Positions 42 through 47,013 of a DNA stretch of 47,037 nt are shown here, piece by piece. The translations under genes were made by a program, and so were the position numbers. The notes beneath the pieces are model-generated. The model was not told the origin of the DNA and did not search any database. It saw only the letters and a program-made list of their open reading frames with translations. The DNA is from a virus: UHGV virus genome UHGV-0206534; one strand, 5' to 3'. How positions within the stretch are numbered: position 1 is the first letter of the stretch; each line of letters opens with the position of its first letter.

Positions 42-1697
42 TCATTTCAGACCTCTCATAAATTTCATCCTGTTAACGGCTGCTGAGAGTATGTTTCTCA
101 CCGAGGCATTCATTCGCAAACCAGACCAGGACCCCTCATCCCTGAATACGATTTTTGACCCACCGTTAACAGCAGAAGCCTCAATGTCGATAGGTGAGTG
201 TCGGTTCTCTGTAATGGAAACCAGAACCTCAGAAATGAACCTGTCAGGCGTCACCTGTAGATGATTTGAATTTGCTGCCTTAATGATCGTCTCAACTCGT
301 CCACGGCACAACCCGCTTTTAAGTACAGAAGTGTAAGGCTTATTAATGAATTTTTTCCCGGCCATCACCTTCCTCATTTTGGCTATGATGTTTTCCCACT
401 CATCCTCTTCAAGGCCACTGAATGCAACGTCACCTTCTATATAATCACGAAGTGAGCGCAAGTGGTTTATCACTGTCATATAAGCCCATTCAAGATGCCT
501 GTCGCACAAAACTGGCGTCATCCCATTGCGACTCGAAAGGTCTGCAAATGCGCATATCGAGGCAAGGTCTACGATCATCTGCCCGGCACGTGGGACAACA
601 TCACCAATTACACCATCTACATTTCCAAGACATTTCTCAAGGTGGCACGTAAGCTCATAACGCCTGTCGTTTACCTTTTCGCTTTCAAATTCAACGCGGG
701 TTATTGAGCGCAGGATTCTTTGCTTCCATTCATTTACTATCCTCCTGTTTACCTCACCTGCCGGCTGCTCTCTTTTGAGCAACGGCATTTCCTCATCATC
801 GCCATGACCAAGAATGAACAACGTCCTTCCCATGCCACCATCCTTCTGCCATGACCTGACAGCATCAATGCCCTGAACTGGCGTTACAGTGATGAGCGGA
901 ATAAATCGCGCGTTCTCAATGCCTCCATCTCGCGTGCATAATTCATGCTCAGCCATCACTTTTTTCAGGTTTCTGCCCACACTGTGATCCATCCGCGCCA
1001 ATCTTTTATAATCAATCATCCCATCCTGCGCACCGCCAATACGCGGAACAATCCAGCCTTCCGCCATAGCAACACTAACTATCGTCTTGGGGTTCATGGC
1101 TTTAGCCATATTCTCCTCAATATCCCTGATTATTGTCCTTGTTGGCACCCATCCACCCTCATCAGATAATCCGCGATACCACGGAGCTGTTCCTCCAAGA
1201 TATGCGCTGCGCGGGTCGTTCCATGAGTCAATGTGCTGCTTGTCATCGTTTACCACGTAAAGCAGGGAGCCATCACCTTCAATCATGCTGGTCTGTATTT
1301 GCTTTAGTGATGTCGCAGTAGTAGTGCAGAGGCGGTCACTTATCATCAAGGCTTCGGCATATTGCTTTATGAAATTTACCGGAGCTTGCTTCCCAGCTCC
1401 AGACCGCGCCACGAGGAAAATGCCAGTTGAGCACTTACTCCCCGTTGGGCCAATGATAAATCTGCCCGCCATTATCTGAGCAAGACCAAGCGCGCCAACA
1501 AGTCGATATTTTTCGCCATCATCACGGCGCTCGAAGTTTTCTTCTATCTCCTGGATGAACTCACCAAGTGATCCTGGTGGAATCTTGTATTTCTCCCTGA
1601 ACTCAGGAATGTCAGCCTCATCGAGCGGGTCTGTTGATGAATCCGATTTCCCGACGGATTTTTTCATGGCTATAATTTCGTATGTATTCATCAGCAA
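42..1697 (-). CDS. Putative DNA replication protein (initiator/helicase-like, unclassified)
   Basis: 551-aa ORF with a degenerate P-loop-like segment (SGAGKQ). Its 5' end abuts the iteron-like origin region. Translationally coupled to the upstream small ORF. Confidence 0.4.
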   Translation of the reverse strand: MLMNTYEIIAMKKSVGKSDSSTDPLDEADIPEFREKYKIPPGSLGEFIQEIEENFERRDDGEKYRLVGALGLAQIMAGRFIIGPTGSKCSTGIFLVARSGAGKQAPVNFIKQYAEALMISDRLCTTTATSLKQIQTSMIEGDGSLLYVVNDDKQHIDSWNDPRSAYLGGTAPWYRGLSDEGGWVPTRTIIRDIEENMAKAMNPKTIVSVAMAEGWIVPRIGGAQDGMIDYKRLARMDHSVGRNLKKVMAEHELCTRDGGIENARFIPLITVTPVQGIDAVRSWQKDGGMGRTLFILGHGDDEEMPLLKREQPAGEVNRRIVNEWKQRILRSITRVEFESEKVNDRRYELTCHLEKCLGNVDGVIGDVVPRAGQMIVDLASICAFADLSSRNGMTPVLCDRHLEWAYMTVINHLRSLRDYIEGDVAFSGLEEDEWENIIAKMRKVMAGKKFINKPYTSVLKSGLCRGRVETIIKAANSNHLQVTPDRFISEVLVSITENRHSPIDIEASAVNGGSKIVFRDEGSWSGLRMNASVRNILSAAVNRMKFMRGLK

Positions 1698-23422: not shown

Positions 23423-23452
23423 AAAAGCCCCGGAAGGGGCTTTTGTTTATTT
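23422..23452. terminator. Bidirectional rho-independent terminator
   Basis: GAAAAGCCCCGGAAGGGGCTTTTGTTTATTTT. Confidence 0.8.
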
Positions 23453-23587
23453 TAGCGTGAACCAAACCTTATCTTCTTTTTCATGCAGGTGGTCGCGCTC
23501 TTTTGGTTCTGGAAAATCCTTTGGTTCTAGCCCCATCTCGCAAGCGGTATCAAAAGAAATATCATCTTCGTCAATGTTGTCACTCAT
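23447..23587 (-). CDS. Small acidic protein (46 aa)
   Basis: Last gene of the leftward operon, 2 nt downstream of the clamp-like gene. Confidence 0.3.
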   Translation of the reverse strand: MSDNIDEDDISFDTACEMGLEPKDFPEPKERDHLHEKEDKVWFTLK

Positions 23588-23589
23588 CA

Positions 23590-24126
23590 CTAAATCCTCA
23601 TCGGCATAACGATAACTTTTGCAGTCTCGCCAGTCGGCGCACTGATGCTTGCGACAGCGGCGCTGGTATTTCCGTTCAGCTCAAAGAGCACCGCTTCATA
23701 TTTCGGGTTAAACAGCTTAGCAAGCTTCTCAGCATCTGCCGGGTATTTGGCGTTGAAGCCGATTTGCTCAGTTGGTGTAGTCTCCTTCGGGATAACGCGA
23801 TCAATGTCAGGGAATCGGCCATCAATCTCAGAACAGATACCTGCGCCTACCATAATTTCATGCTCGTCATGGTAGGTGACAGTGTTTGTTTTGTTATCCA
23901 GCACCGCGTAATCATAGCGCTTAGTTGGCGACTTGCTAACTGATACAATGATGTTATCGTCAAGTTTATTATTGTGCTTATCACTAACAAACAGGCGATG
24001 CCCATCAGTTGCCGCCACGCGACCATCAGGCATAAAGCAAATTCCGTTCAGGTAATAACGCACATCGTTTTTCGCCTGAAACATTAATGCGCCCTCGAGT
24101 AATAACTTACTAATTTTTAATTTCAT
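23590..24126 (-). CDS. Truncated DNA polymerase III beta sliding-clamp homolog (domains II-III only)
   Basis: VRYYLNGICF...ATDGHRLFV aligns with E. coli DnaN VRYYLNGMLFE...ATDGHRLAV. IDGRFPDIDRVIPK matches VDGRFPDYRRVLPK. C-terminal VIVMPMRI matches YVVMPMRL. Confidence 0.7.
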   Translation of the reverse strand: MKLKISKLLLEGALMFQAKNDVRYYLNGICFMPDGRVAATDGHRLFVSDKHNNKLDDNIIVSVSKSPTKRYDYAVLDNKTNTVTYHDEHEIMVGAGICSEIDGRFPDIDRVIPKETTPTEQIGFNAKYPADAEKLAKLFNPKYEAVLFELNGNTSAAVASISAPTGETAKVIVMPMRI

Positions 24127-24299
24127 TTCTTAACCTTCACCATGTGTTGTTTTGCAACCTTCAGGCATTCATCAAAAATCTTGCCTTTCTTCTCACTCTG
24201 ATTGCATCTGTAGTGGGTAATTGCGGCCTCTATAGCCGCATTGTCGATACCTGGCAGTTTTTCGCGCATGTTTTTCTCTATGAATTGTTCGTGGTTCAT
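24123..24299 (-). CDS. Hypothetical small basic protein (58 aa)
   Basis: ATGA overlaps on both sides. Confidence 0.35.
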   Translation of the reverse strand: MNHEQFIEKNMREKLPGIDNAAIEAAITHYRCNQSEKKGKIFDECLKVAKQHMVKVKK

Positions 24300-24556
24300 C
24301 TTTGCAGCCTAAATGAAATATTACTCCCACCTATTGCAACATAACGGAATTTTCCGCAACCTTTTTTGACCCTGCACTTTCTGTATCGGTAGCGTCGCAT
24401 TTCATGGTAGGCCTTTTCTGTCAAAAGGAATATGAATCCCCTATCAATGGCGCCAGCAACCTCAACCACGGATTTAGACATTTGATCAATAATGTCTTTA
24501 GTGCTCATAGAAGACCAATCCACGCTATGACCACTATTAATTAATCCTTTCATCAC
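24296..24556 (-). CDS. Hypothetical protein (86 aa)
   Basis: ATGA overlaps on both sides. Confidence 0.4.
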   Translation of the reverse strand: MMKGLINSGHSVDWSSMSTKDIIDQMSKSVVEVAGAIDRGFIFLLTEKAYHEMRRYRYRKCRVKKGCGKFRYVAIGGSNISFRLQR

Positions 24557-25368
24557 AGCTTCTCCAGAATCGCCAGCACCTCACTCAACTCAGCAGAAGG
24601 AAGGCGCAAAAATTCTTCTGTCTCCTGTGCCACATGGCCCTCAGCGACAACCATGTGATCTGCTTCTTTCAGCAACTGAATCAGGCGGTCAATCGGCTTA
24701 ACTTTTTTGGCCTTGAGCGTTTTCGCCGTCACCTTATCTTTTCCCTGCGCTTTCGCTTCCTCAACGGCAGCATCAATAACGTTAACGGCATCATCGCCAT
24801 GCTCACGTGCGACCGCAACGGCGTTGGAATAGCTGATTTGGCCTGCATTGATGCGCTGCTTGATGGCGTCAGGCACGTCACCAAGTGACAAGTGCATCTG
24901 CACATCAGAAACCGAGCGACCTACTTTTTTGGCGATTTCTTCATTCGTCCACCCGAACCCTTTGAGGCGTACATAAGCCTTTGCACGCTCAAGCGGGTCA
25001 AGCTGCTTTCCTTGACTGGATGACACCATGAAGGCGATTTTATCCGCTTCATCGCCGGTGAAGTCTTTGCACTCAATGCGCGCAATTGGTACGCCGCGCT
25101 CAATGGCACGCAGTGCGCCAAGATAACGATGCTGGCCGTCAAGAATCTTGATGCGCTTTCCGTCAGCATCAGGAATAACAGTTAACGCCGGGATTGGCTG
25201 GCCTTATTCCCAGCACTGCGCGAAGTATTCAACGTGCTGCTCATCGGCTTCGCGGATGTTGTACCCAGGATCAAGATAAAGCTGGTCGACAGGAACCTGA
25301 TAACCTTTGTTGACCACGATTCCGCCGCGAGTTTCTTTGTCTGAGTAAATTTTTCCGAGAGATGTCAT
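24553..25368 (-). pseudogene. ParB-like nuclease/HTH domain gene interrupted by a single in-frame TAA (25204-25206)
   Basis: Continuous frame from ATG 25368 (RBS GAGGAAAAG). The N-terminal 54 codons end at TAA. The same frame continues ...GKRIKILDGQHRYLGALRA (ParB box) ... TNEEIAKKVGRSVSDVQMHLSL (HTH). Confidence 0.55.
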
Positions 25369-25375
25369 CTTTTCC

Positions 25376-25492
25376 TCACTTTAACAAACAGATTGCGCTG
25401 GCAATGGCGAATCCGATAACGATTAACGCCAGCTTAATTTTGAAGTTGCGCCATGCCTTCAGGTCTTCTTTGCGGATTTCGTGGCGGATCAT
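25376..25492 (-). CDS. Small membrane protein (38 aa)
   Basis: ATGA overlap with the Ea22-like gene. One TM helix. Confidence 0.3.
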   Translation of the reverse strand: MIRHEIRKEDLKAWRNFKIKLALIVIGFAIASAICLLK

Positions 25493-25800
25493 TGTGATTC
25501 TCCGATTGCTTTGGCGATGGCATCTTTAGCTTTCGAGGTGTTAACGTAGACACATGCGCGAGCTTCCAAATCCATCAGCGCTTCCAGCAATTCAGGCGCG
25601 GCGGCAATGAGCCGTGCATTAGCCATTAGATAATCCATCTGCTCATCATCCGTGGACATAGACACCACGCATTCGGCGAATCTGTAGTGCGGAACTTCAC
25701 CGTTATGGTCAAAATCAAAGATTGCCATTCCATCCTTGATTCTCATGCTCCACGGGCCGTGGTACCCTTTAAACTCTTTCATCTTCATCACCTCTAACAT
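25489..25800 (-). CDS. Ead/Ea22-like protein
   Basis: LMANARLIAAAPELLEAL is a hallmark segment of Ea22/Ead-family proteins. Confidence 0.5.
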   Translation of the reverse strand: MLEVMKMKEFKGYHGPWSMRIKDGMAIFDFDHNGEVPHYRFAECVVSMSTDDEQMDYLMANARLIAAAPELLEALMDLEARACVYVNTSKAKDAIAKAIGESQ

Positions 25801-25811
25801 TTATTGTTGTT

Positions 25812-25853
25812 TCTACGTCATCACTATAGCTATACCCTCAATCTACGTCAACA
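25812..25853. promoter_or_regulatory. Conserved element (two copies) forming a leftward promoter: TTGACGTAGATTGAG, 8 nt, TATAGT
   Basis: On the minus strand, -35 TTGACG, a 17-bp spacer and -10 TATAGT. Same architecture as the 2395-2423 promoter. Confidence 0.55.
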
Positions 25854-46119: not shown

Positions 46120-47013
46120 ATGCGATACGACTGGAAGGATATAGAGCCTTTAATGGTAGGGAACTGGCAGGCTGCCATCATGTCGATAGTCAATGTCGAT
46201 ATGAGAATTTTCAATGGTAAGCATCAGCCATGCCCAAGTTGCGCTGGCAAGGACAGGTTTAGATTCGATGACCACTTAGACTACAAAGGTGACGGCGGCG
46301 CCATCTGCAACCAGTGCGGAAACGGCAGCGGAATCACCTGGTTAATGAAGCTGTCAGGAATGACGTTTCCAGAGTCAATGGAGGCACTGGCCGGATTTCT
46401 GAATATGCACCCACGCGAAAGACTTGAGGCGATTAGAAAGCAACTTCCGAAGGTCAACCATGCTTCTGACTACCTGACAGAGGCAGAAGTGACGGCCATC
46501 ATGGAAAAAGCGGGAGGCGACACCATAACCGGTAAAACTGGTGAACTGGTGGCGATACCGCTCTATATGGCTGGAACCATGACGCCATGCAATGTGGCAT
46601 TCATTGCTGACGATGAAAGTGTGTCATTTCGCGCGGGTTTCAGCCATGAGTACACTCGCGGAAGACTTACGCGCGGCGCCGTTACACCAATTGGAGATAA
46701 GACAGAATGGACATACCTGGTTGCGGATTACTTCGATGCCTGGCGAGCGCATCGGCTTACCGGTGCTCATGTCTGGTGCTGCTGGTCGCCGGAAAACATG
46801 TGGGAAGTTGTGCGCAATGTTAGCGATGAACAGCGCACTAAACTGCGTTGCATCATTAATAATAATTTCGATGAGGTATGCGCCGCCGAGGATGCAGGTC
46901 TTCCGATACTGATTACTGATGATGGTCAGGAGATTCGTTACAGCGGAGCCATCAGGAAAAGGCTGTATAAACCAGAAGAACTATTTGAAGTACTAAAAAA
47001 CAAACCCTCCTAA
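46120..47013 (+). CDS. DNA primase (zinc-binding, P4-type N-terminal domain)
   Basis: CPSCAGKDRFRF...GAICNQCG zinc-finger typical of phage/plasmid primases. 297 aa. Confidence 0.6.
   Translation: MRYDWKDIEPLMVGNWQAAIMSIVNVDMRIFNGKHQPCPSCAGKDRFRFDDHLDYKGDGGAICNQCGNGSGITWLMKLSGMTFPESMEALAGFLNMHPRERLEAIRKQLPKVNHASDYLTEAEVTAIMEKAGGDTITGKTGELVAIPLYMAGTMTPCNVAFIADDESVSFRAGFSHEYTRGRLTRGAVTPIGDKTEWTYLVADYFDAWRAHRLTGAHVWCCWSPENMWEVVRNVSDEQRTKLRCIINNNFDEVCAAEDAGLPILITDDGQEIRYSGAIRKRLYKPEELFEVLKNKPS

Follow-up and report, generated by a model that had tools for sequence, protein, structure and literature searches.

A widespread half-size phage homolog of the β sliding clamp that appears to keep the client pocket and to lack the ring interfaces

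The virus genome UHGV-0206534 (47,037 nucleotides; this whole stretch of DNA is called the window below) carries on its minus strand, at positions 23590..24126, a gene coding for a protein of 178 residues related to the bacterial β sliding clamp DnaN and named here the mini clamp. The protein is proposed to be a stand-alone, non-ring fragment of β reduced to the pocket in which the clients of the clamp dock, and it would compete with the host β2 ring for clamp-binding motifs. That it binds the QLxLF-type motifs of host clamp clients off the host ring, and so diverts these proteins, is a reading of the sequence comparisons and of a structural model to which we give a little less than an even chance. 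The coding frame extends from an ATG at 24126 to a TAG stop codon at 23590-23592. The ATG overlaps the stop codon of the upstream 58-residue gene in the sequence ATGA, and the reading frame closes one codon 5' of it.

The relationship to sliding clamps was established by sequence and by structure. A phmmer search against all PDB sequences returned β clamps with E=3.7e-12, residues 7-156 of the query being aligned on DnaN 136-291, and BLASTP against E. coli DnaN gave E=3e-13; the identity to the host DnaN is 32%. The AlphaFold2 monomer model, computed from 106 diverse homologs, was compact and very confident (predicted local distance difference test, pLDDT, 97.1; predicted template modelling score, pTM, 0.91). 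All the significant sequence and structure matches of the mini clamp were sliding clamps and no best match to a different fold was found, showing that the protein has the clamp fold made of beta-alpha-beta-beta-beta motifs. The first-pass annotation, made by a model from the DNA letters without database searches, had recognized the similarity to E. coli DnaN from a few shared segments, and these were recovered at the expected places in DnaN: VRYYLNG at 151-157, ATDGHRL at 171-177, DGRFPD..RV.PK at 238-250, IGFN at 317-320 and V(I)VMPMR at 360-365. The DVRYYLNG peptide is also present in chromosomal dnaN genes. The mini clamp reached 40.9 bits with TIGR00663, the dnaN equivalog model (cutoff 137.65), and 20.9 bits with PF02767 (cutoff 27); in Pfam, neither PF00712 nor PF02768 was matched.

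Residues 1-114 (23785..24126, minus strand) are the equivalent of DnaN domain II (about 130-250 in E. coli) and include a conserved AKNDVRYYLNG loop. The remaining residues 115-178 (23593..23784, minus strand), which form one helix and three strands, correspond to the last half of domain III (E. coli 316-366). For residues 121-178, HMMER and BLAST gave two rival placements, on DnaN 254-306 or on 316-366, and the family profiles decided between them: the C-terminal profile of the family (66 columns) scored 34.6 bits on E. coli DnaN 305-366 versus 7.1 bits on 251-316. The N-terminal profile scored 63.6 bits on E. coli 126-250, that is on domain II, and domain I scored nothing. When 134 short members were aligned with E. 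coli DnaN by MAFFT, the segments 1-125 and 251-300 of DnaN had zero occupancy. Furthermore, Foldseek alignments of the 178-residue query to full-length clamps extended over about 255 columns, implying a large internal gap relative to β. Judged from these alignments, the mini clamp is composed of domain II followed by the final beta-alpha-beta-beta-beta motif of domain III, which amounts to about 1.5 clamp domains. The earlier description as domains II and III, the latter shortened, without domain I was thus right for the presence of domain II and for the absence of domain I, and understated the deletion, only the last half of domain III being kept. Segments of DnaN domain I and of the N-terminal half of domain III were searched for in the six frames of the window with tblastn and phmmer; all matches had E>1, and no hidden domain-I exon or missed frameshift was found. 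In the model, residues 64-72 form a Pro-containing loop without helix at the place where β has the second channel-lining (inner) helix of domain II, so that one channel-lining helix of this domain is predicted to be lost.

In E. coli β, subsite I of the client pocket is formed by R152, L155, T172, G174, H175, R176, L177, P242, R246, V247, V360 and M362, and subsite II by H175, N320, Y323, V344, M362, P363, M364 and R365 (PMC11139829). The corresponding residues of the mini clamp are R23, L26, T40, G42, H43, R44, L45, P106, R110 and V111 in its residues 1-114, and N125, Y128, A156, I172, M174, P175, M176 and R177 in its residues 115-178. Sixteen of the 18 pocket positions are identical to those of E. 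coli β and the two others are conservative changes (V344A and V360I), whereas elsewhere 41 of the 145 aligned positions are identical (28%; Fisher p=8.7e-7). The same contrast holds for the family, in which the mean identity to the E. coli residue is 0.72 in the pocket versus 0.21 elsewhere (134 members; Mann-Whitney p=1e-8). Nearly all the near-invariant columns of the family belong to the pocket or are adjacent to it, namely D21, R23, Y25, L26, G28, T40, G42, H43, P106, Y128, M174 and P175. Apart from the pocket, the mini clamp shows no strongly conserved surface for protein binding, and the family is least conserved at its N-terminal edge, which would have to serve as a second interface. 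This pattern indicates that what selection preserves in the family would essentially be the client pocket.

The fate of the ring interface is the opposite. On its domain III side this interface comprises I272, L273, E298, E300, E301, E303 and E304, and in the head-to-tail dimer I78 and F106 contact I272 and L273 while K74, R96, R103 and R105 contact E298-E304 (PMC11139829). All these head-to-tail residues fall in segments that are deleted from the mini clamp and from its family; with domain I and DnaN 251-300 missing, both sides of the canonical ring interface are gone. The alignments hence support the view that the mini clamp would be unable to close a ring via the canonical interfaces. The first-pass annotation had reached this point and had also proposed that the partner-binding cleft was kept, in agreement with the identities given above. 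It had further supposed that the domain III interface was retained and that the protein could cap host β through it; the residues of this interface lie in the deleted segment, and both suppositions are contradicted.

The mini clamp belongs to a large family. Searched exhaustively, 1.84 billion cluster representatives yielded 2,329 homologs at E<=1e-3; the best 150 of these 2,329 are nearly all 170-220 residues long, and the first full-length DnaN (378 residues) among the matches appears only at E=3e-13. No fused domain was found in the longer members. A full-length mini-clamp homolog is encoded by 272 deposited phage genomes, and short models of the BFVD database with template modelling (TM) scores of 0.75-0.89 come from phages of Pantoea, Serratia, Burkholderia, Escherichia, Rhodococcus, Gordonia, Xanthomonas and Bacillus. 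The possibility that the gene was shortened in this phage only was also considered, and was rejected in view of this large and old family of 170-220-residue proteins. Within the phage group of the window, 49 of the 50 copies are intact with exactly 178 codons, and the median ratio of nonsynonymous to synonymous substitutions (dN/dS) is 0.11 over 728 pairs, which demonstrates, at the level of codon comparison, purifying selection on the family. As a separate observation, the mini clamp gave a weak structural match (TMq 0.39; BFVD model A0A6J7W9M3_1) to a part of a 1,394-residue 'large polyvalent protein-associated domain' protein from an uncultured phage; this polyvalent protein may contain a clamp-like module.

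The family is already represented in databases under conflicting names. PHROG 3007 matches the mini clamp over its full length (E=6e-57; residues 1-178 on profile positions 1-186 of 190), and its members, phage- or prophage-encoded short homologs of the β subunit that have 170-220 residues and lack domain I, are the mini clamp's own family. This PHROG is labelled "RusA-like Holliday junction resolvase", a label propagated to many RefSeq records (e.g. NC_071155.1 and NC_054642.1), and the same protein was named 'DNA polymerase III beta subunit' by other depositors. NCBIfam has no dedicated model for the family, and no match to the defence systems of PADLOC was obtained. In the literature searched, short phage clamps were met only in the annotations of genome announcements and in one survey of 2011, and no functional study was found. 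That survey described five short phage homologs of the β subunit as containing 'the second and third domains' and gave no function for them (Kazlauskas & Venclovas 2011; PMC3201878). The mini clamp differs from the description of these five proteins in that it shows only half of domain III and that its conservation lies in the pocket. One genome paper used the family as "DNA polymerase III beta subunit" for phylogeny; treating it as a 'DNA polymerase' in this way is misleading.

The placement of the gene in other phages was analyzed from a search of related loci seeded with a 24-sequence subset of the family. In a lambdoid tier of temperate phages and prophages, with about 30 viral contigs (L056-L084, IMG/VR), in which the mini clamp is 38-49% identical, the usual order is the CI repressor, a cro-like gene, CII (PF05269), the mini clamp and a variable replication module, that is the organization of an early-right operon. 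The module located 3' of the mini clamp consists of O and DnaB, of an O-like initiator and lambda P, or of an SF2 helicase set; Hafnia phage yong1 (MT135176.1, 12623-13156) is an example of the lambdoid type. In the Kagunavirus Escherichia phage Schulenburg (L002, 5965-6486) the mini-clamp gene stands by itself within the head module, on the opposite strand and between annotated terminators; this phage has its own family-A polymerase (PolA), a T7-type SSB and helicases. In Sortsnevirus IME279 and Vibrio phage R19R, the gene has primase, SSB and DNA methyltransferase genes as neighbours. An early position, or one beside DNA-metabolism genes, is thus the usual one whatever the type of initiator or helicase, and the gene is not confined to polymerase-less phages. 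DNA methyltransferase genes were also seen to recur next to the mini clamp in several phage lineages that are not related to each other, in RSU-F4K5 (L001, 17745-18674), IME279 (L007, 3259-3960 and 4560-5297) and R19R (L005, 5380-6045).

No canonical clamp-binding motif is conserved in the neighbouring phage proteins, with three scattered matches in the 2,832 open reading frames (ORFs) of the related loci, and no phage partner carrying such a motif was found within the window. The mini clamp being constant and present even in a Kagunavirus with its own PolA, the replication module variable and a conserved phage partner motif absent, a constant host partner is suggested, and the partner of the mini clamp is probably a host protein. 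Since the pocket is under selection, it is reasonable to propose that the protein sequesters or diverts clamp-binding partners. Candidate clients are the α, ε and clamp-loader δ subunits of DNA polymerase III (Pol III), Hda, Pol II, Pol IV and Pol V, MutS and MutL, ligase and RecB. Presumably expressed from an early-type cassette, the mini clamp would pull one or more of these clients off the host clamps early in infection, and the net effect would be that host replisome or repair factors are diverted or retuned for the benefit of the phage, rather than that a processivity ring is formed. Two described cases provide a background to this proposal: MuC of phage Mu binds the clamp via clamp-binding motifs, and its overexpression perturbs the Hda-dependent control of initiation and is lethal (PMC12867686); RecB carries a pocket-binding motif (PMC13254535).

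Several points weigh against client diversion. No DNA polymerase or clamp loader was found in the window or in its fully annotated relative RSU-F4K5, so that replication must use host Pol III, and a general sink for Pol III α or δ would starve Pol III-dependent phages, including this one and the lambdoid members. As such a sink would harm its own phage, the mini clamp would either act on a selected client, for which Hda, RecB, mismatch repair and translesion polymerases are candidates, or deliver clients instead. The presence of the family also in phages that depend on host Pol III argues against a simple, blanket inhibitor of host replication. The statement of the first-pass annotation that the protein is not an ordinary phage clamp holds. 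The pocket itself is deduced from sequence identity and a monomer model, and the literature searched contained no binding, toxicity or knockout data for any member of the family. Finally, outside of the pocket, basic residues (K19, position 11, K134, K137 and K142) are conserved on elements that face DNA in real clamps, and the family has a median net charge of +2 whereas β is acidic, which a pure soluble decoy leaves unexplained.

These basic residues are one ground for reading the mini clamp as a positive replication factor instead of a sink. As a loader-independent tether or adaptor similar to the herpesvirus UL42 and UL44 proteins, it would sit on phage DNA or in the phage initiation complex via a basic concave face while its pocket recruits scarce host Pol III, or PolA where the phage has one, to phage templates. 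We regard this as rather unlikely. The lambdoid position between cII and O/P-type replication genes in the early-right operon and, elsewhere, the proximity of primase, SSB or methyltransferase genes are in agreement with it, as are the conserved Lys and Arg on channel-facing elements and the median isoelectric point (pI) of the family, 8.25 versus 5.25 for E. coli β; basic charge is the criterion that Kazlauskas & Venclovas applied to non-ring clamps (PMC3201878). With a tether, it would also be understandable that the gene is tolerated by phages that depend on Pol III. On the other hand, the protein of the window is not basic (pI 6.4, net charge -1), one of the channel-lining helices is predicted to be lost, and 1.5 domains are unable to hold DNA topologically; the gene lies far from the replication module, within the head-gene region, in this phage and in Kagunavirus, and the pocket is not accompanied by another strongly conserved surface for protein binding.

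The channel-facing basic residues would also suit a multi-subunit processivity ring, in which protomers of three motifs assemble into a closed ring of 12 beta-alpha-beta-beta-beta motifs, e.g. as a D2 tetramer, a symmetry that would be novel, with paired half-domains rebuilding a 'domain III'. Clamp domains have an internal pseudo-twofold symmetry, which would in principle let the half-domain pair with that of a second copy, and a half-domain left unpaired should have an edge strand and one side of its helix exposed. A precedent would be β*, a UV-induced product of an internal start in E. coli dnaN that contains domains II and III and was reportedly described as a trimeric clamp by Skaliter et al. 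in 1996. All the canonical interface residues are however deleted, domain II is predicted to be without its inner helix, these phages have no clamp loader gene and the N-terminal edge needed as the second interface is poorly conserved; the compact monomer model, although compatible with oligomers, is very confident. Such a ring is therefore considered improbable. Still less credit is given to a poisoning of the host ring, in which the mini clamp would pair with a host β protomer through the domain III interface and block closure: dominant-negative fragments are generally plausible and the homology to host β is real, but the protein, like its family, lacks I272, L273, E298-E304 and all of domain I, and conservation is centred on the pocket and not on any edge strand. 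That the gene is a decaying, functionless remnant of a captured dnaN is hardly believable. The truncation relative to dnaN and the nonsense codon of the neighbouring ParB-like gene would fit with decay, whereas the low dN/dS and the intact 178-codon copies, the thousands of same-length homologs across distant phage groups, and an identity to host DnaN so low that the capture cannot be recent do not. As for a RusA-like Holliday junction resolvase, to which we attach next to no probability, the database label is all that speaks for it; no Pfam RusA match was obtained even at E<=10 and no RusA fold was matched. This identity was rejected on the basis of the fold and of the significant matches, all to sliding clamps, and the RusA-like label is wrong.

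The window is the genome, of about 47 kb, of a siphovirus related to Klebsiella phages vB_KpnP_XY3, VLCpiS13b and RSU-F4K5 and to Aeromonas/Vibrio phages pIS4-A and pYD38-A. It encodes an SSB, an ERF recombinase, a PDDEXK exonuclease, a VRR-NUC protein, an SF2 helicase and primase-like proteins. The primase-like functions are carried by two ORFs of opposite strands, one at each end of the window, a zinc-ribbon primase of phrog_510 (46120-47013, plus strand) and a 551-residue protein (42-1697, minus strand); the latter matches the C-terminal part of the 'DNA primase' PHROG 3022, and RSU-F4K5 has a single primase of 772 residues.

Among the head genes stands a leftward cassette of six genes with overlapping junctions, of which the mini clamp is the fifth. 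In the direction of transcription the order is a promoter-like site, a 103-residue gene, the ParB-like gene, an 86-residue ORF, the 58-residue gene, the mini clamp, a 47-residue ORF and a hairpin. The sigma-70-like promoter candidate (25823..25851, minus strand; TTGACG-17-TATAGT) matches 10 of the 12 consensus positions, such sites being no commoner than expected from shuffled sequence. The 103-residue gene (25489..25800, minus strand) belongs to phrog_1273, with no assigned function. The ParB-like gene (24553..25368, minus strand; HTH_ParB/KorB in Pfam) contains an in-frame TAA at 25204-25206, which results from a single TCA to TAA change with respect to an intact relative of 283 residues (L009, 6783-7634), the remaining frame showing 95% nucleotide identity; an error of sequencing, a split gene or a recent pseudogene could account for it. 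The 86-residue ORF (24296..24556, minus strand) has no family match, and some relatives have a DNA methyltransferase at that position. The 58-residue gene (24123..24299, minus strand), of phrog_4439 and without assigned function, is missing beside the lambdoid homologs and is consequently not a universal partner. Downstream, the acidic 47-residue ORF (23447..23590, minus strand), also without family match, starts with a GTG that overlaps the TAG of the mini clamp, an arrangement of translational coupling; it is absent from RSU-F4K5, where the corresponding gap is too short for it. A GC-rich hairpin with T-runs on both sides (23423..23444) separates the leftward cassette from the convergent head-gene transcript and is likely a bidirectional terminator. 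The leftward operon described in the first-pass annotation was thus confirmed by the overlapping junctions, the promoter-like site and the hairpin, and so was its ParB-like gene, apart from the premature TAA. The 'Ea22-like' neighbour was not: neither Pfam (E<=0.01) nor the PHROGs supported this name. The 103-residue gene contains the string AAAPELLEAL, which we take to be a feature of Ead/Ea22-like phage proteins, and Pfam and PHROG 1273 gave no confirmation of it.

Compared with known systems, the mini clamp shares with DnaN the clamp fold and the pocket for clamp-binding motifs. It differs from this protein of about 366 residues and three domains (I-II-III) by its 178 residues, by the lack of domain I and of the first half of domain III, by its phage origin and by the absence of a loader. 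β* is likewise a natural clamp derivative without domain I, but it keeps a complete domain III and its interface, so that a PCNA-like ring is possible, whereas the mini clamp is devoid of that half-domain. UL42 and UL44 consist of two full domains, bind DNA through a strongly basic face and associate each with the polymerase of its own virus; the mini clamp, by contrast, has 1.5 domains and is near-neutral, and its phage has no polymerase. Together with Gp168 of phage Twort (PMC8565349) and MuC of phage Mu (PMC12867686), it would illustrate how phages manipulate the hub formed by the clamp and its clients. Gp168, through the channel, and MuC, through clamp-binding motifs, bind the host clamp, whereas the mini clamp would imitate the pocket and bind the clients.

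The family is an already annotated one, its homology having been in databases since at least 2011, and its function is deduced by comparison. Three features appear not to have been stated before: that half of domain III is kept, that the client pocket is essentially what selection preserves, and that the ring interfaces are specifically what was removed. The proteins of bacterial replication and repair have the β clamp as their central docking hub, which is also an antibiotic target, and a very common pocket-only phage protein implies that this hub is manipulated by imitation of the clamp and not by binding to it. Widespread phage 'clamp-client traps', which would capture scarce host Pol III or clamp-loader assemblies for phage DNA or else selectively disable Hda, mismatch repair, translesion polymerases or RecBCD, are a possibility that we hold with somewhat more reserve than client binding itself. 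If they exist, they would take over the replisome in a hitherto undescribed way, as mirror images of clamp inhibitors like Twort Gp168, and the mini clamp would offer a small, naturally minimised pocket scaffold for screens of clamp-binding peptides and drugs. They would also explain how phages without a polymerase compete for the few Pol III holoenzymes of the cell, or how they shut off host repair or the control of initiation.

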